NCBI GenBank assembly: GCA_963675515.1
Contig: OY776328.1
Coordinates: 990,001-1,022,000 of the forward strand
From: Coprobacillaceae bacterium
GTDB lineage: Bacteria; Bacillota_I; Bacilli_A; Erysipelotrichales; Coprobacillaceae
Reading direction: 5' to 3'
Length of the DNA stretch: 32,000 nt
A model generated the notes under the pieces. The model did no database searches. It worked only from the letters and a program-made list of their open reading frames with translations, and was not told the DNA's origin. The translations under genes were made by a program, and so were the position numbers. Each line of letters begins with the position of its first letter. Position 1 is the first letter of the stretch. Shown here piece by piece: positions 173 through 17,320 of the stretch.

Positions 173-754
173 ATGAGACATTTGATAGTCAGCTCACATC
201 CATATGACAAGAGTTTTAGCAACGGTATTGTTGAAACTATTGAAAAGGAAGCTTTGGAAAACGGGGCGGAAGTAAGAATCAGGAATCTTTACGAAATAGG
301 GTTTGATCCGGTGCTGGCAGGTTCCGACCTGTTGAATCTTCAAAGCAGTAATTATGCATCAGACATCAAAGTCGAACAGGAGCATGTTGAATGGGCGGAT
401 GTTATCACTTTTGTTTATCCGGTGTGGTGGGCAGGTATGCCGGCCATGTTGAAAGGATATGTGGATCGCGTCTTTGCGAACGGTTTTGCGTTCACGCATG
501 GTGAGACAGGTCCAACGGGTTTGCTCAAGGGTAAAAAGGCCTTGTTGTTCAGTACGACAGGATTCCCTAGTGAAATCTATGATCAGATCGGGATGCATAA
601 TTCAATGCAACAGACGTCAGACGAGGCAATTTTCAATTTCTGTGGTGTTGAAGTTGTCGGGCACGCATTCTTCGGTGCCATCCCAACATCAACAGCTCAG
701 CAACGCGAGCGGTATTTGGGCGAAGTCGCCAAGATTGTCAAAGAAAATTGTTGA
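173..754 (+). CDS. NAD(P)H dehydrogenase (quinone), flavodoxin-like fold family oxidoreductase
   Basis: 193-aa ORF. The N-terminus MRHLIVSSHPYDKSFSNG and the motif YPVWWAGMPAMLKGYVDRV are typical of the Flavodoxin_2/NQO family. A GAGGAG RBS at 157-162 precedes the ATG. Confidence 0.85.
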   Translation: MRHLIVSSHPYDKSFSNGIVETIEKEALENGAEVRIRNLYEIGFDPVLAGSDLLNLQSSNYASDIKVEQEHVEWADVITFVYPVWWAGMPAMLKGYVDRVFANGFAFTHGETGPTGLLKGKKALLFSTTGFPSEIYDQIGMHNSMQQTSDEAIFNFCGVEVVGHAFFGAIPTSTAQQRERYLGEVAKIVKENC

Positions 755-930
755 TAAATAAGTAATGATGTTCAATTTATTCGGCATCTCGATACATGAA
801 ATTCGATAACTAAAGTACTAATTTTGGAAATTGATGTGATACCATTGAAATGACGAGTGGTACGCAATTTATGAGTAAAGAATGTGACTTAAGGGAGGCC
901 CTTTGTGTTTTAGAAAGGAGAAAAACAATT

Positions 931-1341
931 ATGACAATAAGTGAAGCCGCCGAATTGACAGGCGTAAGTGTCGATAATCTTAGATACTATGAGCGGATTG
1001 GATTGATTCCCGAGGTTCCAAGAACCGAGTCAGGCATTCGTGACTACGATGAAATGTCCTTGAATTGGATTGATTTCGCCATGCGGTTCAAAAAAGGCGG
1101 GATGTCTCTTGAAGCCATCAGGGAATATATCCAGTTAGCCCTTCAAGGTGAGGCTACAAAGCCTGCAAGAAAGCTGATTTTGTTTGAAGCGAGACAGGAT
1201 TTGGAAAAGAAAATGGCTGACATCCAGGAAAGCCTGGATGTAATAAATTACAAATTGGACAATTATGAAGAAAAATGTGAACCATTTACTATGGACATGG
1301 TAAATGAATGGAAATCAAAGAAAGAAAACGCAAACAAGTGA
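931..1341 (+). CDS. MerR family transcriptional regulator
   Basis: MTISEAAELTGVSVDNLRYYERIGLI is a canonical MerR N-terminal HTH, and a C-terminal coiled-coil region follows. I moved the start from 850 to the internal ATG at 931 because AAAGGAG at 914-920 sits at the right distance. Product is 136 aa. Confidence 0.88.
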   Translation: MTISEAAELTGVSVDNLRYYERIGLIPEVPRTESGIRDYDEMSLNWIDFAMRFKKGGMSLEAIREYIQLALQGEATKPARKLILFEARQDLEKKMADIQESLDVINYKLDNYEEKCEPFTMDMVNEWKSKKENANK

Positions 1342-1357
1342 GAGAGGAATTTAAAGT

Positions 1358-1540
1358 ATGCCGGTAATCAATATCGAAGCAGGAAAACTGAACATAGATC
1401 AAAAGAGGGAACTTGTCAAAGAGATGACAGCGATAGCATCGAAAGTGATGAATGTTCCTGAACAGGCGTTCATTGTATTGTTGAAAGAAAATGAGACTGA
1501 GAACATCGGTCTTGGCGGAAAGTTGCTTTCGGACAGATAA
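1358..1540 (+). CDS. 4-oxalocrotonate tautomerase family protein
   Basis: 60-aa ORF starting MPVINIE (catalytic Pro1 after Met removal). Size and sequence are typical of 4-OT family monomers. It starts 17 nt after the MerR stop. Confidence 0.85.
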   Translation: MPVINIEAGKLNIDQKRELVKEMTAIASKVMNVPEQAFIVLLKENETENIGLGGKLLSDR

Positions 1541-1574
1541 GCCAGTTTCGTTTGAGATTTGAAAGGAGTACGCA

Positions 1575-2105
1575 GTGAAAATAGTCGTAATTACAGGAAG
1601 CCCTAGAAAAAAGGGGACATCCTCAGTTCTGGTGGAACAATTCATCAAAGGGGCCAATGAGGCGGGACATGGTGTCTATCGGTTCGATTCGGCCTTTGCA
1701 AATGTCAGTCCATGTAAAGGATGCAATTATTGCAAAACAAACGAATCATGTTGCATAAAGGATGACATGGAGGAACTGACCGGTGAACTTGTCAAAGCCG
1801 ATGTCATTGTCTTCGCCATGCCGGTGTATTACTTTGGAATGCCGGCCCAGATCAAGGCGGTTGTCGATCGAATCTATGCCCCGGAAAGCAAGATGTATGG
1901 CAACAAGAAGGTTGCACTGATGGCAACGGCCTATAATCCGGATGTCAAGGTCATGGCAGCACTCGTAAAACAGTATGACATGATTGTGGATTATATGAAG
2001 TGGGAGAATTTAGAAATGATTCTCGCATCAGGCTGCGGAGCAAGGGATGATATCACAAATACTGATTATCCTTTGAAAGCGTATGAGTTTGGAAAAAGTA
2101 TATAG
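1575..2105 (+). CDS. Iron-sulfur flavoprotein (Isf-like), NADPH-dependent FMN reductase family
   Basis: GTG start preceded by GAAAGGAG. MKIVVITGSPRKKGTS is an FMN_red-type N-terminus. The compact Cys motif CKGCNYCKTNESC (C-x2-C-x2-C-x5-C) matches the 4Fe-4S motif of Isf proteins. Confidence 0.8.
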   Translation: MKIVVITGSPRKKGTSSVLVEQFIKGANEAGHGVYRFDSAFANVSPCKGCNYCKTNESCCIKDDMEELTGELVKADVIVFAMPVYYFGMPAQIKAVVDRIYAPESKMYGNKKVALMATAYNPDVKVMAALVKQYDMIVDYMKWENLEMILASGCGARDDITNTDYPLKAYEFGKSI

Positions 2106-2143
2106 TGCAATTAGCTGGATTGAGAATATAAGAGGAGAAGAAA

Positions 2144-2656
2144 ATGGAATTTAATGAAGTAATCAAAAATCGTTTTTCATGTAAAAAATTTGACGGCCGC
2201 CAAGTTGATAAAGAACAGCTGGATGCAATTCTGGAAGCGGGAAGGCTCGCACCTACTGCAAAGAACCTTCAGGAACAGCACATTTATGTGGTTCAGTCAC
2301 AAGAAGGGCTTGCCAAGCTCGATAAGTTGACCCCTTGTAGATATGGGGCATCCACAGTTGCCGTAGTTGCCTTTGACAAAACAAACGTGTTTACCTATCC
2401 CGGTGAAAAACGGGATTCAGGTGTGGAAGATGCTACAATCGTGGCTACCCATATGATGTTGGCGGCTCACGCACAAGGTGTCGACAGCTGCTGGATCAAC
2501 TTTTTTGATCCGGAAATCATGGCAAAAGAATTGGGCATGAATGAAAACGAAGAAGTGCTCATGATGCTTGATCTTGGTTATGGTGTTGAGGGTACCCAAC
2601 CTCTTGTCACCCATAATAAGCGCAAGGATATCAGTGAATTAGTATCTTATTTATAA
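2144..2656 (+). CDS. Nitroreductase family protein
   Basis: 170-aa ORF. RFSCKKF near the N-terminus and LEAGRLAPTAKN are hallmark nitroreductase-fold motifs. An AAGAGGAG RBS is present. Confidence 0.88.
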   Translation: MEFNEVIKNRFSCKKFDGRQVDKEQLDAILEAGRLAPTAKNLQEQHIYVVQSQEGLAKLDKLTPCRYGASTVAVVAFDKTNVFTYPGEKRDSGVEDATIVATHMMLAAHAQGVDSCWINFFDPEIMAKELGMNENEEVLMMLDLGYGVEGTQPLVTHNKRKDISELVSYL

Positions 2657-2676
2657 AATACAGGAGGAAAACAATA

Positions 2677-3606
2677 GTGAATTTACCTAAAATAGCGATG
2701 GGCGCATGGGCCTGGGGCGACAAGGATGGATATTTTGGAAACACGATGACGGGAGAAGAATTCCGACCGATTTTCGATAAAGCGATGGAACTGGGATTCA
2801 ATCTGTGGGACACCGCAACAGCATACTCGAATGGCGAGTCAGAGAAAATTCTTGGTGGCTTTGTGAACGACGCTGGAAGAGAAAATGTAATCGTGTCGAC
2901 AAAATTCACCCCGCAAATGGCACCGATGTATGACAACAGCGTGGAAAAGATGTGCGACGCTTCATTGCAAAGAATGGGAATGACATATTTTGATATCTAT
3001 TGGATTCACAATCCGGTTGGAGCGCCGGAGTTCACGAGACAACTGATTCCACTTATCAAAAACGGCAAGGTTAAAAGCGTTGGTGTTTCCAACCATAGTC
3101 TCGCGCAGATAAAAGAAGCAAATGAAATTCTCAAGGCAGCCGGATACAAGATCTCCGCAGTCCAGAATCACTACAGCCTGATGAATTGTTCGTCGGAAGA
3201 ATCAGGCATATTGGATTACTGCAAGGCAAATGACATCGTATTCTATGGCTATATGACCCTGGAACAAGGTGCCCTTTCAGGTAACTATGATTCCAAGAAT
3301 CTCTTCCCTGAGGGTTCAGCCCGGGCCAAGGTGTTTAATCCGATCATGGACAAGATTGAAGTGATCACCGAGGAACTTGGAAAAGTGGCTGATGCCCACA
3401 GTGCCACAGTAGCCCAGATTGCAACCGCTTATGCCATCAACAAAGGTGTGCTTCCCATCCTGGGGGTGACCAAGATTTATCAAGTGGAGGAAGCAATCAA
3501 GATGGCCGACATCAAGCTTACCACTGATGAGATCACTGCTCTGGAAGAAGCGGCAAAGCGCTCAGGTGTGGAGTCGATCCAGTTCTGGGAAAGCAAAATG
3601 GACTAA
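2677..3606 (+). CDS. Aldo/keto reductase
   Basis: GTG start 9 nt after AGGAGG. Motifs GAWAWGD, WDTATAYSNGESE, STKF, IYWIHNP, GVSNH and QNHYSL fit the AKR catalytic framework. Product is 309 aa. Confidence 0.88.
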   Translation: MNLPKIAMGAWAWGDKDGYFGNTMTGEEFRPIFDKAMELGFNLWDTATAYSNGESEKILGGFVNDAGRENVIVSTKFTPQMAPMYDNSVEKMCDASLQRMGMTYFDIYWIHNPVGAPEFTRQLIPLIKNGKVKSVGVSNHSLAQIKEANEILKAAGYKISAVQNHYSLMNCSSEESGILDYCKANDIVFYGYMTLEQGALSGNYDSKNLFPEGSARAKVFNPIMDKIEVITEELGKVADAHSATVAQIATAYAINKGVLPILGVTKIYQVEEAIKMADIKLTTDEITALEEAAKRSGVESIQFWESKMD

Positions 3607-6879: not shown

Positions 6880-6910
6880 TTGACCTAGAGTTGGGTTTAA
6901 CTTGTAGGAT
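6880..6910 (+). promoter_or_regulatory. MerR-type promoter (site C): TTGACC, 19-bp spacer, TAGGAT
   Basis: TTGACC at 6880-6885, a 19-nt spacer TAGAGTTGGGTTTAACTTG, and TAGGAT at 6905-6910. It lies about 55 nt upstream of the 6967 ATG. The spacer contains the AGTT...AACT inverted repeat. Confidence 0.5.
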
Positions 6911-6966
6911 TGTATCATAGTCATTATCGCAATAATAAATGCAGTAATGAAAAAGGAGAAAGAAAA

Positions 6967-7836
6967 ATGGAATATGTCACATTGAATAACGAATTGAAAA
7001 TGCCAATCATGGGATTCGGGGTGTTCCAGGTCCCTGATAAAAAGGAGTGCGAAGAATCGGTATACCAGGCAATCAAAGCCGGATACCGTCTGATCGATAC
7101 GGCGGCGGTCTATACGAACGAGGATGCGGTCGGGACCGGAGTCAAAAGGGCAATCAGTGAAGGGATCTGCACAAGGGAAGATCTGTTCATCACCTCCAAA
7201 CTATGGGTTCAGGACATGAAAAGCTATGAGATGGCCAAAAAGGCAATCGAAGCTTCAATTGAAAAGTGCGGTCTGGAGTATATCGACCTGTATCTTCTGC
7301 ATCAGGCGATGGGTGATTATTTTGCTGCCTGGCGCGCCATGGAAGATGCCTATCAGGAAGGCAAGTTGAAAGCGATTGGTGTGTCCAACTTCTATCCGAA
7401 TATCCTGACGAATTTCTGCGAAACTGTTGCAATCAAACCGATGGTCAATCAGGTTGAACTGCATCCGTATTTCACCCAGGAACAGGCACTGGAAACAATG
7501 AAGCATTACGGCGTGATCCCTGAAGCATGGGCACCCCTTGGCGGAGGACGATACAATCCTTTCGAAGATGAGATGCTTCTTGCCATCGCCAATAAATACA
7601 ACAAAACAGTGGGACAGGTGATGCTTCGCTGGAATATCCAAAGAGGAGTGGTAGTCATCCCGAAATCAACCCACGTTGAAAGAATTATCGAAAACATCGA
7701 TGTTTTCGACTTCGAAATTGATGAAAACGAGATGAACCAAATCGCATCACTGGATCAGGGATACAGCGGTTCTAGAGCCAAACATTTTGAACCTGATTTC
7801 GTCCGCGGATGCCTGTCAGTAAAAATCCACGACTAG
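6967..7836 (+). CDS. Aldo/keto reductase (DkgA/YvgN-like 2,5-diketogluconate or glyoxal reductase type)
   Basis: I moved the start to ATG 6967 (AAAGGAG at 6951-6957), giving MEYVTLNNELKMPIMGFG. Motifs LIDTAAVYTNE, ITSKLW, IDLYLLHQA, IGVSNF, NQVELHPY and VIPKS are present. Product is 289 aa. Confidence 0.92.
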   Translation: MEYVTLNNELKMPIMGFGVFQVPDKKECEESVYQAIKAGYRLIDTAAVYTNEDAVGTGVKRAISEGICTREDLFITSKLWVQDMKSYEMAKKAIEASIEKCGLEYIDLYLLHQAMGDYFAAWRAMEDAYQEGKLKAIGVSNFYPNILTNFCETVAIKPMVNQVELHPYFTQEQALETMKHYGVIPEAWAPLGGGRYNPFEDEMLLAIANKYNKTVGQVMLRWNIQRGVVVIPKSTHVERIIENIDVFDFEIDENEMNQIASLDQGYSGSRAKHFEPDFVRGCLSVKIHD

Positions 7837-7923
7837 TTGACCATGGATGTTCGTCTGGATGAGTCGTGATCCTGTAATGTAGATTGATTAATCAAAGAAC
7901 TATGTTTAAAATTGATTTGAAAT

Positions 7924-7973
7924 GAAAAAAAGGGAGTGTCATGACTGGTAATGGTTGTGACATTCCCTTTTTG
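7924..7973. terminator. Bidirectional rho-independent terminator between the convergent AKR genes
   Basis: The stem pairs AGGGAGTGTCA (7931-7941) with TGACATTCCCT (7958-7968), with one G-U pair. An A-run lies 5' (7924-7930) and a T-run 3' (7968-7972), so it can terminate on either strand. Confidence 0.7.
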
Positions 7974-8149
7974 GCATCCATAAGAACGATGTATCCATAT
8001 ATGATGATGGGCCCTAACAATTCCAATGTGGTACAATTGTAGACTTATGCAAAAAAGGCGTAATGGACTCTTCAAAATTGGGGTTGATATTTCCTGAAGT
8101 GTGATTAGATCTCAATTCCAACTTCAGACTGATACGCAGAAAATTATGT

Positions 8150-8995
8150 TTACATCATATTGAGCATCATTTCGGTCCGCTGGTAATCCTGGGACGGGGT
8201 CGTGTTGTGCTCGACCATGTCGAATGTTGCCAGATAGTCCATTTCTGCCTCGGTCAACTCGAAACCGAAAAGATCCAGATTGTCTTCCATCCATTGTCTT
8301 TCCATCGGGCGGGTGATGACCGAAATGCCACTTTGCATCAGATATTTCATGGCAATCTGGCGGGGTGATTTCACGTATTTCTTGGCGATCTGTCCTACCT
8401 TGATGTCTTCATATACGTCTAGTGTCTCTTCCTTGCCAAAAACCTGATAGCCTTGCATGACTATATGGTTATCCTTCATCATATCATGAAGCTCGTTTCT
8501 CTGGCATCGCATAGTGGCCTTCACCTGATTGACAGCGGGGATGACCTTGTTGAAATGGATAAGATCGATCAGCTGGCTGGCCTGGTAGTTGGAAACCCCG
8601 ATTGCCCGGATCAGACCTTCCTCATGCATCTTTTCAAGCTCCCGCCACGCATGATAGGTGTTTCCATAAGGCCAGTGGATAAGAACGAGATCCAGATAAT
8701 CGGTCCGCAGCTTTTTCATCGATTCTTCAATTGATCTTCGGCAGGCGTCTCCTTCAAATTCGCTGATCCAGACCTTGGTGGTCAAGAAGATATCCTCTCT
8801 TGATATGCCGGCCTTTTCAAGCGCCGCTCCGACGATTTGCTCATTATGATAGATCTGGGCGCAGTCAAACAGCCGGTACCCGACCTCATAGGCCTCTTTG
8901 AGGACCTTTGTGCATTCCTCGACGTCCATGATATTCATTGTTCCAAAACCTGCAAGTGGCATTTTCAATCCGTTATTTAGTGTTGTGTATTCCAT
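8150..8995 (-). CDS. Aldo/keto reductase
   Basis: 281-aa ORF starting MEYTTLNNGLKMPLAGFGT. Motifs FDCAQIYHNE, LTTKVW, LDLVLIHWP and IGVSNY are present. An AGGAG RBS lies upstream on the minus strand (9001-9007). Confidence 0.9.
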   Translation of the reverse strand: MEYTTLNNGLKMPLAGFGTMNIMDVEECTKVLKEAYEVGYRLFDCAQIYHNEQIVGAALEKAGISREDIFLTTKVWISEFEGDACRRSIEESMKKLRTDYLDLVLIHWPYGNTYHAWRELEKMHEEGLIRAIGVSNYQASQLIDLIHFNKVIPAVNQVKATMRCQRNELHDMMKDNHIVMQGYQVFGKEETLDVYEDIKVGQIAKKYVKSPRQIAMKYLMQSGISVITRPMERQWMEDNLDLFGFELTEAEMDYLATFDMVEHNTTPSQDYQRTEMMLNMM

Positions 8996-9985: not shown

Positions 9986-10188
9986 GTTCAAGAAGAATCA
10001 GTAAAAGGTGAATCATTCAATGAAATTGGATTTTTCCAATAGTCTCACAGCGTGGCGAAGTGTCATTGTTTGATATATTTCATAACTCTTAGTAATACCT
10101 GGTCCCTCTTTTGGAATATTATTTTCAGAATCGGCCAAATTTGATTATTTGAGTTATATTTGTGATAACATCATTTCGAGGTGAGAAA

Positions 10189-11048
10189 ATGATCAAGATG
10201 ATTGTCAGTGACATGGATGGAACCTTGCTTTCAAAAGGCGAAACCATAACAGAAAAAAACATATTCGCGATAAAAAAAGAAATGGAAAACGGTTGTAAGC
10301 TGGTCATTGCCAGCGGGAGAAACTATGGTGGTGTCAAGCCGATAATGGATCGTTATGATCTAAAAACAAGTATGATCCTAGGTAATGGCGCCCAATATAT
10401 TGATGAATCCGGGGAACTTAGAATCACAAATTACTATCCCAAGGATGCTTTGAAAGAAGTTATATCCATTTTCGAAAGACTCGATATATATTTCATGATT
10501 TTTGCCAGCAACGATACTTTTTACAGTGTCCAGGAGCCATGGACATCCAGACCGCCTTTTTGCATCGGTGCGCCAATCGGTTTGGCGGTATGACTTATGA
10601 AGAACTGTTGGCTGATCCAGCCAAATGTTATCCTTCCAAACATCTAAAAAAGATATCCGTGGAAGAGTTGGTCGCAAGTGACATCGACATCATAAAATTG
10701 GAAGCATTTGATACCGATACTTCCAAAATAGAGAAAGCCAAAATTGAATTGCGGGATGTCATGGAGATTGCCTATTTGTCTTCATTTGATGACAATGTCG
10801 AAGTTACGGCCAATATAGCGCAAAAGGGTTATATCTTGAAACAAGTCATTGAAATATTCAATATCGAAAAAGAAGAAGTGATAGTTTTGGGCGATGGCAT
10901 GAACGACATCACGTTGTTTGAGGAATTTCCATACAGTTTTGCTCCCGACAATGCCGAAGAAGAAATCAAAAAATTGGCATATATGGTGGTAAGCGACTGC
11001 AATAACGATGCAATTGCTCATGCTTTGGAAATTGCCAAAAAATTATAA
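10189..11048 (+). pseudogene. Cof-type HAD-IIB phosphatase, split by a frameshift near 10535-10540 (or an assembly error)
   Basis: ORF 10162-10593 carries the HAD motif I (VSDMDGTLL) and ORF 10539-11048 carries motif IV (LGDGMNDITLF). The two overlap in different frames and together equal one normal Cof-like protein of about 285 aa. The likely true start is ATG 10189 after GAGGTGA. Confidence 0.75.
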
Positions 11049-12636: not shown

Positions 12637-12848
12637 GATAGTCGAGAACACTCGCGACTTTAGTCGTGGAGATGAATCGACATTTTGGGGATTTTTTTAA
12701 CTGTGTTTGATGGTTGCTTTTGTTTTAAATCATATACTTTGAAACAATAATGAAATTGTACTTTTTGTCATACACATGTTAAAATGTATACGAGATAATG
12801 TGGACGGGGTTATTTAATAAGTCAAAAAAAAGAAATAAGGTGATGATG

Positions 12849-13988
12849 ATGTTGCACCATAAGGCATACAAGTTCAGGATCTACCCTAATAGTGAACAGG
12901 AAATATTGATCTGTAAAACGATCGGGTGTGCCCGGTTTGTCTATAATCATTTCCTGAATCTGTGGAATGAGGAGTATGACAGTACCGGTAAAGGTTTGAA
13001 TTACAATTCCTGCTCCGCCATGCTTCCGCAAATGAAGCGGGATGATAATACTATCTGGCTCAAGGACGTAGACAGCATTGCCCTCCAATCGTCATTGAAG
13101 AATCTCTCCGATTCATTCGCAAGGTTCTTCATGAAGCAAAACAGCCACCCAAGATACAAAAGCAAGAAGAATCCGGTTCAAAGCTACACGACCAAAAACG
13201 TGAACAACAGTATTGCCGTAATTGGCAAATCGATCAAGCTGCCCAAGCTAGGTCTGGTGAGATTCGCCAAGAGCCGGGAGATCAAAGGAAGGATCATTAA
13301 GGCGACTATTCGGAAAAATCCCAGTGGCAAATACTTTGTTGCCGTTGTCGTTGAAGAAAAGATTGAGCAATTGCCCAAAACAAATTCGACAATAGGTATT
13401 GACCTTGGTATCTGTGACTTCGCGACATTTTCAAATGGCAGAAAAGTCGCCAATCATAAGTTTACCAACCAAATGGAGAAGAAACTTATCCGTGAACAGA
13501 AAAAGCTGTCAAGAAGGGCGCTCCTTGCCAAAAGCAAAGGAATCAATCTTCTTGAAGCAAAGAACTACCAGAAACAAAGACGCATAGTGGCATTGCTTCA
13601 TGAAAAGGTAATGAACCAACGCAATGACTTTTTGAACAAGTTGACAACCCAGATCATCAAAAACCACGATGTCATCTGTGTCGAAGACTTGAACACAAAA
13701 GGAATGTTGCGTAATCATAGACTGGCTAAAAGCATATCCGATGTTTCCTGGTCGGCCTTTGTGGATAAGCTAATCTACAAGGCTGAATGGTATGGCAAAG
13801 AAATCATCAAGGTGGACCGCTGGTATGAGTCTAGTCAAAGATGCCACAAATGTGGCCACAAGGATGGCAAGAAGCCACTCCACATCAGGGAATGGACTTG
13901 TCCTATTTGCGGCAGCACCAATGACAGGGATATCAATGCGAGCAAGAACATACTGAAAGAAGGACTGCGCATAATAGCACAGTCCTAG
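12849..13988 (+). CDS. tnpB: RNA-guided DNA endonuclease TnpB (OrfB_IS605/IS1341 type)
   Basis: N-terminus KAYKFRIYPN. RuvC-I is IGIDLG, RuvC-II is VICVEDL, the zinc ribbon is CHKCGH...CPICGS, and RuvC-III is NDRDINASKNI; all catalytic residues are intact. I prefer the start at ATG 12849 (AAGGTGA RBS at 12837-12843); 12843, 12846 and 12798 are alternatives. Confidence 0.9.
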   Translation: MLHHKAYKFRIYPNSEQEILICKTIGCARFVYNHFLNLWNEEYDSTGKGLNYNSCSAMLPQMKRDDNTIWLKDVDSIALQSSLKNLSDSFARFFMKQNSHPRYKSKKNPVQSYTTKNVNNSIAVIGKSIKLPKLGLVRFAKSREIKGRIIKATIRKNPSGKYFVAVVVEEKIEQLPKTNSTIGIDLGICDFATFSNGRKVANHKFTNQMEKKLIREQKKLSRRALLAKSKGINLLEAKNYQKQRRIVALLHEKVMNQRNDFLNKLTTQIIKNHDVICVEDLNTKGMLRNHRLAKSISDVSWSAFVDKLIYKAEWYGKEIIKVDRWYESSQRCHKCGHKDGKKPLHIREWTCPICGSTNDRDINASKNILKEGLRIIAQS

Positions 13989-14120
13989 ACAATTACTAAA
14001 CCGTAGGAACTACGGGGATAGCTTGGTAAACAAGAGAAACCGCTGAGTATGGTGGATGCACCATACTCAAGTAAGCTCTGTTCCCAAGAATCCCGTGACT
14101 TCAGTCATGGGAGGTTCAAC
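13989..14120 (+). ncRNA. Putative omega RNA (reRNA) 3' scaffold of the TnpB element; the 5' end probably lies inside the tnpB 3' coding region
   Basis: A dense run of hairpins sits between the tnpB stop and the RE: CCGTAG-gaa-CTACGG (14001-14015), CTTG-gtaaa-CAAG (14022-14034), a perfect 10-bp stem GAGTATGGTG-gatg-CACCATACTC (14045-14068), and the RE hairpin (14092-14111). The position and orientation match where TnpB guide RNAs are encoded. Confidence 0.55.
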
Positions 14121-14150
14121 TTCCAAGTTCCTAGGAACTTTAAATTATGA

Positions 14151-15149
14151 TTAGTTGTGAGCTTCTTGGATAGCAACGGCAACAGCTACAGTAGCTCCTA
14201 CCATTGGGTTGTTACCCATACCGATCAATCCCATCATTTCAACGTGGGCAGGTACTGATGAAGAACCAGCGAATTGAGCATCACTGTGCATTCTTCCCAT
14301 AGTATCTGTCATACCGTATGAAGCAGGACCAGCGGCCATGTTGTCAGGGTGTAATGTACGTCCAGTACCACCACCTGATGCTACAGAGAAGTATTTTTTA
14401 CCTTGTTCCAAACATTCTTTTTTGTATGTTCCAGCAACTGGATGTTGGAAACGAGTTGGGTTTGTTGAGTTCCCAGTGATTGAGATATCAACACCCTCAC
14501 GGTGCATGATAGCTACACCTTCTTGAACGTCGTCAGCACCGTAGCAGTTTACTTTAGCGCGAGGTCCGTCTGAATATGATTTACGGAAAACTTCATTCAA
14601 TTCTCCAGTAGCATAGTCATATTGAGTTTCAACGTGAGTGAATCCGTTGATACGTGAGATGATTTTAGCTGCGTCTTTTCCAAGACCATCTAAGATTACA
14701 CGTAAAGGTTCTTTACGAACGCGGTTAGCCGCTTCGGCGATTTTGATAGCTCCTTCAGCTGCAGCGAAAGATTCGTGTCCAGCCAAGAAAGCGAAACATT
14801 TAGTTTCTTCCAATAATAACATTGATCCTAAGTTACCATGTCCCAAACCTACTTTACGTTGGTCAGCAACTGAACCTGGGATACAGAAAGCTTGTAAACC
14901 AACACCGATCATTTTAGCTGCTTCTACTGCAGTAGTTGATCCAGTTTTGATTGCGATTGCAGCACCAGTAATGTATGCCCAACAAGCGTTTTCGAAACAG
15001 ATTTGTTGTGTTGATTTTACGATATCGTAAACATTGACACCTTTAGCGTCACAGATAGCTTTGGCTTCATCCAAATCTTTGATTCCGTATTGAGCTAAAG
15101 TTTCGTTGATTTTATTAATTCTGCGGTCATAACTTTCAAATAATGGCAT
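14151..15149 (-). CDS. GGGtGRT-motif protein (uncharacterised conserved family)
   Basis: It contains the family-defining motif in SVASGGGTGRTLHPDN. Start is at ATG 15149 (MPLFESYDRR), 13 nt after the upstream stop, with AGGAGG between them. Product is 332 aa. Codon use is strongly biased (Ala mostly GCT, Gly GGT). Confidence 0.85.
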   Translation of the reverse strand: MPLFESYDRRINKINETLAQYGIKDLDEAKAICDAKGVNVYDIVKSTQQICFENACWAYITGAAIAIKTGSTTAVEAAKMIGVGLQAFCIPGSVADQRKVGLGHGNLGSMLLLEETKCFAFLAGHESFAAAEGAIKIAEAANRVRKEPLRVILDGLGKDAAKIISRINGFTHVETQYDYATGELNEVFRKSYSDGPRAKVNCYGADDVQEGVAIMHREGVDISITGNSTNPTRFQHPVAGTYKKECLEQGKKYFSVASGGGTGRTLHPDNMAAGPASYGMTDTMGRMHSDAQFAGSSSVPAHVEMMGLIGMGNNPMVGATVAVAVAIQEAHN

Positions 15150-15162
15150 TATCTTCTCCTCC

Positions 15163-15855
15163 TTATTCGCATCTTGGATCGATGTATTTAGCAGCATCTG
15201 CGAATCTACCGTAAGTTTTAGTAGCTTCTTTCATTGCTTCGTTAGCATCCATCCCTTTTTTGATTTTATCCATCATGATACCAAGAGAGATAAACTCATA
15301 TCCACAAGTTTCACCGTCTGCGTCTAAACCTAAACGAGTGATGTAACCTTCAGCCAATTCTAAGTAACGAGGACCTTTATCTTTAGTAGCGTAAGTTGTC
15401 CCAACTTGAGATCTTAAACCTTTACCTAAGTCTTCCAAACCGGCACCGATAGGCAATCCACCTTCAGAGAATGCAGTTTGGCTGCGTCCGTAAACGATTT
15501 GTAAGAATAATTCTCTCATTGCTGTATTGATCGCATCGCATACCAAGTCAGTATTTAACGCTTCCAAGACAGTTCTGCCAACGATAGCTTCTGAAGCCAT
15601 AGCCGCTGAGTGAGTCATCCCTGAACATCCGATAGTTTCAATTAATGCTTCTTCAATGATACCTTCTTTAACGTTTAACGTTAATTTACAAGCACCTTGT
15701 TGAGGAGCACACCAACCAACCCCATGAGTTAATCCTGAAATATCAGTGATTTGTTTTGAGTATACCCATTTTCCTTCTTCTGGAATTGGAGCGCAACCAT
15801 GCGATGCACCAATTTTGACACATTGCATTTGTTCTACTTCGTGTGTGTAATTCAT
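15163..15855 (-). CDS. NifU/IscU-like Cys-rich protein, the usual partner of GGGtGRT proteins
   Basis: It is about 230 aa with conserved-looking Cys residues (CVKIGASHGC, GWCAPQQGAC, IGCSGMTHS). It is translationally coupled to the downstream GGGtGRT gene. I prefer the start at ATG 15855 (MNYTHEV) because AAAGGAG lies about 10 nt upstream; 15876 is the alternative. The family assignment is from memory of how such neighbours are annotated. Confidence 0.65.
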   Translation of the reverse strand: MNYTHEVEQMQCVKIGASHGCAPIPEEGKWVYSKQITDISGLTHGVGWCAPQQGACKLTLNVKEGIIEEALIETIGCSGMTHSAAMASEAIVGRTVLEALNTDLVCDAINTAMRELFLQIVYGRSQTAFSEGGLPIGAGLEDLGKGLRSQVGTTYATKDKGPRYLELAEGYITRLGLDADGETCGYEFISLGIMMDKIKKGMDANEAMKEATKTYGRFADAAKYIDPRCE

Positions 15856-15926
15856 CTTTTGAAATACTCCTTTCATATTCTTAATGATTGCAACTTTTCT
15901 GTAGCGCCATAGCGACCACTTGCTAG

Positions 15927-15955
15927 ATTATAATAAAAAAGGGCTTATTAGTCAA
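15927..15955 (-). promoter_or_regulatory. Consensus sigma-A promoter for the NifU-like/GGGtGRT operon
   Basis: Read on the minus strand: TTGACT (15955-15950), an exactly 17-nt spacer, and TATAAT (15932-15927). It lies about 65 nt upstream of the 15855 ATG. Confidence 0.75.
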
Positions 15956-17209: not shown

Positions 17210-17216
17210 GTCCTTA

Positions 17217-17283
17217 GTTATACGACTGACGGAAGTGGAATTGACCACATGAAGTATAATCTTGAGAGCCGACCGTCTGGGCA
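17217..17283 (+). promoter_or_regulatory. ZTP (ZMP/ZTP-sensing, pfl motif) riboswitch aptamer
   Basis: P1 pairs TTATAC (17218-17223) with GTATAA (17254-17259). The conserved junction is GACTGACGG (17224-17232). P2 is GTGG-aattga-CCAC (17235-17248). After a linker comes the 3' conserved block GCCGACCGTCTGGGCA (17268-17283). CCGTC can pair with GACGG of the 5' subdomain to form a pseudoknot. The genomic context (fhs, purH) is the classic one for this riboswitch. Confidence 0.8.
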
Positions 17284-17320
17284 CCTGCCTGGATTTGTCG
17301 AGCTCTTTTTTTGTTTTTTG
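17264..17320 (+). terminator. Intrinsic terminator (expression platform of the ZTP riboswitch)
   Basis: AGAGCCGAC (17265-17273) pairs with GTCG-a-GCTCT (17297-17306), giving 9 bp with one bulge, followed by TTTTTTTGTTTTTT. The 5' arm overlaps the aptamer P3/pseudoknot strand, so the two folds are mutually exclusive (ON switch). Confidence 0.75.

Follow-up and report, generated by a model that had tools for sequence, protein, structure and literature searches.

Within the window, a stretch of 32,000 nucleotides from a Coprobacillaceae genome (contig OY776328.1), two adjoining genes on the minus strand encode a GGGtGRT-family protein (PF14057) and, directly upstream of it, a Cys-rich IscU-like protein that is called the partner in the following. 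The explanation that we favour, tentatively, is that their products are the two subunits of a single iron-sulfur (Fe-S) protein complex, cytoplasmic and abundant in anaerobes, which is most likely an enzyme. In this complex, an Fe-S cluster would be bound by the IscU-like subunit through Cys49, Cys77 and Cys106; Cys56 and possibly Cys202 of GGGtGRT would act as a further ligand of the cluster. The cluster would be a fixed cofactor and not a transient scaffold product, and GGGtGRT would be the catalytic subunit, whose glycine-rich loop may bind a phosphate-bearing ligand. The existence of the operon is not new, as it is already in the literature as BT0173-74. The pair of the window has the same order and spacing as the PF14057 gene and the adjacent scaffold-named gene of Bacteroides thetaiotaomicron (BT0173-BT0174), displays 75-85% identity to its homologues, and is an ordinary member of the PF14057 family without material difference. 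The first-pass annotation, made from the sequence alone, had proposed the pair as undescribed biology; this holds for the function but not for the module, since the family and the pairing were already catalogued and noticed in the literature.

The genes and their control signals are located as follows.

15955 to 15950 (-35 box, TTGACT) and 15932 to 15927 (-10 box, TATAAT), minus strand: sigma-70-type promoter with a 17-nt spacer
15922 to 15856, minus strand: 5' untranslated leader (about 70 nt) that includes a small stem-loop near its 5' end and the ribosome-binding site (RBS) AAAGGAG at 15873 to 15867
15855 to 15163, minus strand: partner gene (IscU-like), 230 amino acids, 8 Cys
15162 to 15150, minus strand: 13-nt intercistronic spacer, TAA-GGAGGAGAAGATA-ATG, which holds the RBS of the GGGtGRT gene (GGAGGAG)
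15149 to 14151, minus strand: GGGtGRT gene, 332 amino acids, with a PF14057 match, an AlphaFold2 (AF2) model and strong conservation as described below
14375 to 14355, minus strand: codons GGT GGT GGT ACT GGA CGT ACA of the GGGTGRT motif, amino acids 259-265
14070 to 14043, minus strand: terminator-like hairpin with a 12-bp stem, 81 nt beyond the GGGtGRT stop codon

This layout, with the partner gene in first and the GGGtGRT gene in second position, shows that the two genes form one transcription unit with coupled translation, and the 13-nt gap with its RBS on which the coupling had been proposed is confirmed. The promoter is indeed the pair's own, but the description of it as perfect does not hold, as 11 of the 12 consensus positions are matched. 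The sequence TTGAC-N18-TATAAT occurs a single time in the window and in none of 100 shuffles, and the loci of related Erysipelotrichaceae have kept TTGAC(T/A)-17-TATAAT ahead of the pair. Sigma-70-like sites matching at least 10 of 12 positions were found upstream of 47% of the pair loci versus 21% of control genes (Mann-Whitney p 3e-7), an enrichment that is taken as supportive only, because the controls include operon-internal genes. The combination of these elements exceeds chance by far. The open reading frame (ORF) lister places the starts further upstream, at 15876 for the partner and at 15197 for GGGtGRT; the shorter starts were retained because they agree with the N-termini of the homologues (MNYTHEV/MIYSKEV for the partner, MPLFESY/MALFESY for GGGtGRT) and with the positions of the RBS.

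The fold of the leader is weak in the window (-10.7 kcal/mol, z-score -1.1), and stronger 5' hairpins (z-scores from -3.3 to -4.0) are present in the two relatives tested. Related Erysipelotrichaceae loci (L001-L004) carry an inverted repeat AGGTGA-N4-7-TCACCT just after the -10 box, some 100 nt ahead of the start of the partner gene, whose counterpart in the window (15856-15922) is weak, with the z-score given above; as a hairpin, this repeat might stabilise the 5' end of the mRNA, or it might act as an operator. A search for riboswitches or leader RNAs upstream of the pair found none. The role of the terminator-like hairpin as operon terminator is uncertain, because it sits within the 3' end region of a TnpB element described below.

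Homology searches returned more than 8000 matches for each of the two proteins, and the matches listed are about 78-100% identical to the query sequence, artefactual assemblies aside. A scan with one genome per GTDB species confirmed at least 598 loci, and the best 80 of them were used for the comparison of loci. These 80 loci (75-85% identity) belong to the Erysipelotrichales, many Clostridia, Bacteroidales, Treponema, Geobacter, Desulfobacteraceae, Polyangiaceae and Syntrophorhabdus. The hosts are mainly anaerobes, with a few facultative ones such as Vibrio. The partner gene lies directly upstream on the same strand in 78 of the 78 testable loci, with a gap mostly of 11-21 nt, the contig stopping before the partner in the two others; the gene neighbourhoods thus bear out the earlier proposal of a conserved two-gene module. 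The same arrangement was found in Vibrio, in Persicobacter and in one archaeal metagenome-assembled genome (Methanobacteriaceae). Across phyla, pairwise identity averages 82% for GGGtGRT and 78% for the partner, and the distance matrices of the two proteins are correlated (r = 0.78, Mantel p 0.001; 0.96 when a divergent subfamily, described below, is included). Among 1.84 billion representatives at 50% identity, 1963 matches were recovered, nearly all of them fragments or chimeras of one cluster, and the full-length proteins correspond in essence to one 50%-identity cluster. A natural read-through fusion of the pair, 569 amino acids long (P0064), was also found. These comparisons show a pair that is obligate, co-evolving and under exceptional purifying selection. 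No conserved neighbours were found around the main-family pair in the 80 loci, where housekeeping genes recur in at most 8 loci each, nor in the Vibrio and Persicobacter loci.

The GGGtGRT protein matches PF14057 over its full length (positions 1-327 of 327; 639.6 bits versus a cutoff of 27; E 1e-192). An alignment of 84 sequences contains the motifs HPDN, ASYGMTD, GRMHS, QFAGSSSVP, GNNP and GGGTGRT, all present in the protein of the window and each conserved in at least 97% of sequences. The same level of conservation is reached at 126 of the 332 positions, including H104, H125, E126, E132, C202, H267, D269, D282, H288, H302, E304 and several Arg and Lys; 22 of the charged or His/Cys residues are invariant. 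The AF2 model, obtained from 81 sequences (predicted local distance difference test, pLDDT, 86.8; predicted template modelling score, pTM, 0.89), displays three parts: helices make up the N-terminal domain (7-111), an alpha/beta domain of Rossmann-like type follows (118-257), and the C-terminal block (258-318) is near-invariant. In this model the motifs AGHES, CYGA, TGNST and SGGGTGRT each directly follow a beta-strand, and GGGTGRT is a glycine-rich loop placed immediately after the strand 254-257. The invariant His, Glu, Asp, Arg, Lys and Cys residues and the GGGTGRT loop would lie at the C-terminal strand ends of the Rossmann-like sheet; a phosphate-bearing substrate or cofactor is proposed because such ends are the usual site for these ligands. 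No relative of GGGtGRT was detected in the PDB by phmmer, by a family profile or by Foldseek. The literature containing the family name assigns no function to it, and according to a 2025 paper the role of the protein "remains unclear". The Pfam, NCBIfam, PDB and Foldseek searches thus agree with the first-pass annotation, which had recognised the GGGTGRT motif as that of a family without assigned biochemical function, and they support, from sequence and predicted fold, the conclusion that neither protein of the pair falls in a biochemically characterised enzyme family.

The partner is named "iron-sulfur cluster assembly scaffold protein" by the Prokaryotic Genome Annotation Pipeline, and it had been labelled a NifU-like scaffold in the first reading of the sequence. 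This label draws on a marginal and partial match to NifU_N of Pfam (23.6 bits versus a cutoff of 22, amino acids 55-113 alone), and the scores are far short of the NCBIfam equivalog cutoffs: 22.2 versus 192.4 bits for IscU (TIGR01999), 27.5 versus 187.9 for NifU_clost (TIGR03419) and 22.7 versus 92.5 for SufU (TIGR01994). Two domains can be distinguished, an IscU-like domain (about amino acids 40-125) and a unique, conserved C-terminal domain of 105 residues (about amino acids 126-230), for which no relatives were found, sub-domain Pfam scans up to E 10 giving nothing new. Residues 43-113 resemble IscU (E 1e-4 by profile, 3e-4 by Foldseek). The partner shares with IscU, NifU and SufU the core of a beta-sheet plus helix, the equivalents of Cys63 and Cys106 of IscU (Cys77 and Cys106 of the partner) and the "DAI" helix (Asp107). 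It differs from them in that residues 43-113 alone can be aligned and in that Cys37 of IscU is replaced by Cys49 and Cys56, which flank a Gln at the equivalent position. It differs further by the additional C-terminal domain, the lack of a desulfurase neighbour, a very high abundance and repression under iron limitation. Cys49, Cys77, Cys106, His44 and Asp107 are invariant, and Cys56 is found in 83 of 84 sequences.

The best PDB sequence match of the partner is the IscS-IscU complex of Archaeoglobus fulgidus (4eb5/4eb7), in which (4eb5) a [2Fe-2S] cluster is held by three Cys of IscU and one Cys of its partner protein. This complex is a precedent for a bridging cluster, to be compared with the three invariant Cys of our IscU-like protein and the near-invariant Cys202 of GGGtGRT, although GGGtGRT is unrelated to cysteine desulfurases. 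By this analogy, a cluster may bridge the two proteins of the pair.

The codon usage of the pair indicates genes built for very high expression. The effective number of codons (Nc) is 32.3 and 37.3 for the two genes, and the GC content at third codon positions (GC3) is 0.29; the other 24 genes of the window have an Nc of 45-60 and a GC3 near 0.5. The four-fold codons are shifted toward T or A (pair versus others: GCT 62 versus 19%, ACT 75 versus 22%, GGT 57 versus 29%; GTT is also enriched), whereas the two-fold codons are shifted toward C (TAC 75 versus 43%, CAC 69 versus 32%, AAC 70 versus 53%, TTC 87 versus 66%). ATC reaches 82% versus 66%, and CGT 48% versus 19%. Such a shift is the classical pattern of translational selection in Firmicutes and would not be given by import from an AT-rich donor. 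Among 50 loci of other species with at least 4 flanking genes, the Nc of the pair is below the median of the flanks in all 50 and below that of every flanking gene in 43, and this holds in GC-rich hosts too. The distinct codon choice (GCT, GGT, ACT) and the high expression claimed at first reading are thereby both sustained, the latter also by published metaproteomes. Both proteins are abundant in proteomes of the chicken gut, of the rumen and of human faeces, the latter two being metaproteomes in which GGGtGRT and "NifU" were detected (PMC7035244, PMC13041051), and GGGtGRT is listed together with the rubrerythrins among the commonly expressed proteins of gut anaerobes. The GGGtGRT protein is also the target of a monoclonal antibody that reacts with Segatella copri (PMC12078515). 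Long antisense stop-free ORFs, of up to about 517 amino acids, lie opposite the pair in 17 of the 80 GTDB loci (for example L049, 5175-6728) and in the window (14638-15030); because the codon bias is extreme, they are most likely a by-product of it and no genes.

The expression of the pair depends on iron, with levels 7-13-fold lower under iron shortage in members of two phyla. BT0173-74 is down 11- to 12.8-fold in iron-limited B. thetaiotaomicron (PMC10434189), and iron excess raises the protein of Clostridium pasteurianum 7.1-fold in the early phase and 2.2-fold in the late phase, together with the [FeFe]-hydrogenase (PMC5395762). An abundant iron-containing protein behaves in this way, an assembly machine does not. 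Concerning the physiology, transposon insertions in BT0173-4 derepress Cur-dependent Roc on glucose, and the screen from which they come yielded three loci alone, namely BT0173-4, pfkA and an M16 peptidase operon (bioRxiv 10.64898/2026.04.10.717545).

A divergent subfamily of GGGtGRT, about 52% identical to the main family, is accompanied by a partner that has diverged with it (51%), and the two genes overlap. It was found in five independent contexts, listed here by locus.

L081: 3997-8606
L085: 2572-8580
L088: 391-6859
L093: 842-6141
L095: 301-5405

In all five, genes for an ApgM-type phosphoglycerate mutase and for a His_Phos_1 protein share the operon of the pair; the operon contains a helix-turn-helix (HTH) regulator, this mutase, the partner, GGGtGRT and the His_Phos_1 protein. 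The two ApgM sequences that were scored (L081 and L088) exceed the NCBIfam equivalog cutoff, with 517 and 491 versus 489. A bacterial cofactor-independent phosphoglycerate mutase (iPGM; 656 versus 331) is added in one context and a haloacid dehalogenase (HAD) hydrolase in another. In the three contexts that extend far enough, GGGtGRT is followed by a protein of 317-332 amino acids with two transmembrane segments, for which no relative was found in Pfam, NCBIfam or the PDB.

Because of the phosphoglycerate mutase neighbourhood and the pfkA-like phenotype, lower glycolysis is, weakly, the most likely area for the activity. That the substrate is one of the phosphorylated three-carbon compounds of lower glycolysis, in the region of 2- or 3-phosphoglycerate, is a speculative proposal to which we give a low probability. 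Equally speculative is the full form of the reading, in which the pair would be a so far unrecognised Fe-S enzyme of central carbon metabolism in anaerobes, very abundant and acting at or near the phosphoglycerate steps, with a fold without characterised relative and with the IscU fold as permanent cluster subunit, maybe with an inter-subunit cluster through Cys202. A functional analogy is offered by the two-subunit [4Fe-4S] hydro-lyases of anaerobes (such as L-serine dehydratase alpha/beta or class I fumarase), which are abundant, O2-sensitive and iron-dependent, hold a three-Cys cluster and act on small hydroxy-acids. The analogy is with the proposed function alone; no relation of sequence or fold to these enzymes was detected.

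Several observations weigh against an Fe-S enzyme of central metabolism. The metal or cluster at the Cys site of the partner is putative, and the site could bind Zn as in SufU. In Vibrio sp. THAF191d (L090) Cys56 of the partner is replaced by Ala, along with Glu304 of GGGtGRT, and in Persicobacter psychrovividus (L091) Cys202 of GGGtGRT is replaced by Ser; these are two of the four loci in which a residue invariant elsewhere is substituted, and both hosts are marine and not strict anaerobes. The most conserved stretch of GGGtGRT, GGGTGRT...ASYGM (260-281), is of low confidence in the AF2 model. Modelling of the heterodimer, which had been suggested as a check, was carried out on the P0064 fusion with a block-diagonal alignment of 8+8 sequences, as larger sets were mis-aligned by MAFFT; it gave a pLDDT of 63.6, a poor IscU-like half and no usable interface, hence no confident model of the complex, and the two-subunit metalloenzyme or maturation system suggested at first reading is putative. 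The link with phosphoglycerate mutase is confined to the divergent subfamily, some of whose contigs also hold transposase, single-stranded DNA-binding protein (SSB), HTH and zinc-ribbon genes, so that the divergent cluster may be mobile, and in the loci examined the main-family pair was never found clustered with metabolic genes. Finally, the effect of the BT0173-4 insertions is just 2-fold, with normal growth on glucose (bioRxiv 10.64898/2026.04.10.717545).

The main rival is a system for the biogenesis, carriage, storage or repair of Fe-S clusters, in which the partner would serve as a genuine scaffold or as a reservoir, with GGGtGRT as its accessory factor, such as a nucleotide-dependent chaperone or a donor of iron or sulfur. 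The sole recognisable relatives of the partner are IscU, NifU and SufU, its three Cys with an Asp and a His make up a ligand set of scaffold type, the glycine-rich loop of GGGtGRT could bind a nucleotide, and expression follows the iron supply as it does for iron-storage proteins. We nevertheless consider this role doubtful. The scores of the partner are far under all scaffold cutoffs, the first scaffold Cys is displaced, an additional domain of 105 amino acids is present, and an IscS-like gene was found within about 6 kb in one of 91 loci (tblastn with a hand-typed Escherichia coli IscS query). Fe-S assembly systems are usually induced by iron shortage and are not among the most abundant proteins, whereas the pair is repressed in low iron and very abundant. 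A biogenesis role would also leave unexplained the 22 invariant residues of catalytic type in GGGtGRT and the clustering with phosphoglycerate mutase. A protective enzyme specific to anaerobes, acting against O2, peroxide, NO or reactive sulfur and abundant like rubrerythrin, would suit the mainly anaerobic hosts, the listing beside rubrerythrins, the iron dependence, the rubredoxin gene that adjoins the pair in a single archaeal locus (the Methanobacteriaceae one) and the richness of the window in reductase and detoxification genes. A conserved link to a redox partner is however absent in about 90 loci, no similarity to known detoxification folds was detected by Foldseek or by a profile search of the PDB, and the glucose-signalling phenotype and the phosphoglycerate mutase neighbours favour carbon metabolism; such an enzyme is accordingly judged improbable.

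Two other explanations have a very small probability. The codon usage might come from recent horizontal acquisition from an AT-rich donor, the pair being a passenger gene set; this would agree with the low GC3, with the TnpB element that abuts the operon and with an identity of about 80% whatever the phylum, which is compatible with some gene transfer. As a cause of the codon bias, acquisition was rejected because of the two-fold codons: these families shift to C and CGT rises while the four-fold families go to T or A, so that the shift reflects selection on codon choice and not AT drift, and the low Nc in 50 of 50 loci, GC-rich hosts included, and the abundance in proteomes argue in the same direction. 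Equally improbable is that GGGtGRT is a distant member of a phosphate-loop family, either a kinase of the phosphofructokinase (PFK)/NAD-kinase type (GGDG) or a GTPase of the FtsZ/tubulin type (GGGTG(T/S)G, GxGxNPxVG). The best Foldseek matches are to the phosphofructokinase of Trypanosoma brucei (155 columns, probability 0.99, E 3e-3), and by eye the motifs resemble the T3/T4 loops of FtsZ and the MGR motif of PFK. The TM-score is however 0.24 and no Foldseek match has an E below 1e-3. When aligned with hhalign to hand-typed E. coli sequences, the family profile gave a probability of 0.2% over 18 residues with PfkA and of 0.9% over 12 residues with FtsZ, and both candidates were rejected; moreover, the FtsZ-like motifs are in reversed order and no FtsZ/tubulin protein is among the top 50 listed Foldseek matches.

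Two further features of the window, which lie on either side of the pair, are located as follows.

12798 to 13988, plus strand: TnpB-only element of IS605/IS1341 type, 396 amino acids, with HTH_OrfB_IS605, OrfB_IS605 and Cas12f1-like TNB domains
17212 to 17289: ZMP/ZTP riboswitch (RF01750), 52.8 bits versus a gathering threshold of 39, upstream of fhs and purC-M-N-H-D-L-B

Some 160 nt rich in hairpins come after the tnpB gene and are presumed to be the omega-RNA and right end of the element, which thus spans 12798-14150 and ends exactly at the GGGtGRT stop codon; the native 3' end and terminator of the operon may therefore have been replaced. On the other side of the pair, capA, then the riboswitch, fhs and the pur operon are divergently transcribed, and the ZMP/ZTP riboswitch ahead of fhs (formate-tetrahydrofolate ligase) and the pur operon is an expected arrangement. 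The regions 173-3606 and 6910-8995 are dense in small redox and detoxification genes (two flavodoxin-fold/FMN reductases, a MerR regulator, a nitroreductase and three aldo-keto reductases), which flank a cbiM(-PDGLE)/cbiQ/cbiO cobalt or nickel transporter of the energy-coupling factor (ECF) type. A Hydrolase_3 gene (HAD/Cof-type, 10162-11048) is in two overlapping ORFs that cover profile positions 1-111 and 126-255; a frameshift in a pseudogene or an error of sequencing probably explains the split. None of the neighbours of the window recurs beside the pair in the 80 GTDB loci.

The gene was also detected on 39 contigs classified as viral in IMG/VR (L097-L135), all of the main type and most with the gene at or near the contig end. 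A phage origin was rejected, since this position is read as host flank or assembly breaks and the "Bacteriophage sp." virome matches of GenBank are unannotated; overcalled prophage boundaries are a possible further cause. Internal duplications, frameshifts or truncations, exemplified by the entries P0001, P0005, P0009, P0121, P0123 and P0357, are common for both proteins, and mis-joined or broken metagenome assemblies are likely at this locus because its nucleotide sequence is near-identical between species. The defence models of PADLOC, compared with the pair and with the proteins of the divergent cluster, gave no match for either protein of the pair; a single insignificant PtuB match (E 0.0056) concerned an unrelated neighbour.

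The pair presents a rare combination, namely an identity of about 80% across phyla, an abundance of the top tier in gut and rumen, and a family without known function or structure. Whatever its role, a considerable part of the protein and iron available to dominant gut anaerobes, among them Bacteroides, Segatella/Prevotella, Lachnospiraceae and Erysipelotrichaceae, is spent on it. The obligate pairing and co-evolution, the invariant Cys/His set, the iron dependence and the clustering with phosphoglycerate mutase are leads for experiment. An assigned reaction would fill a gap in the metabolic models of the microbiome and in the iron economy of anaerobes, and would represent a new use of the IscU fold. 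If the full reading of the pair, as an Fe-S enzyme acting at or near the phosphoglycerate steps, is true, a missing iron-dependent reaction or bypass would be added to the metabolism of gut and rumen anaerobes.

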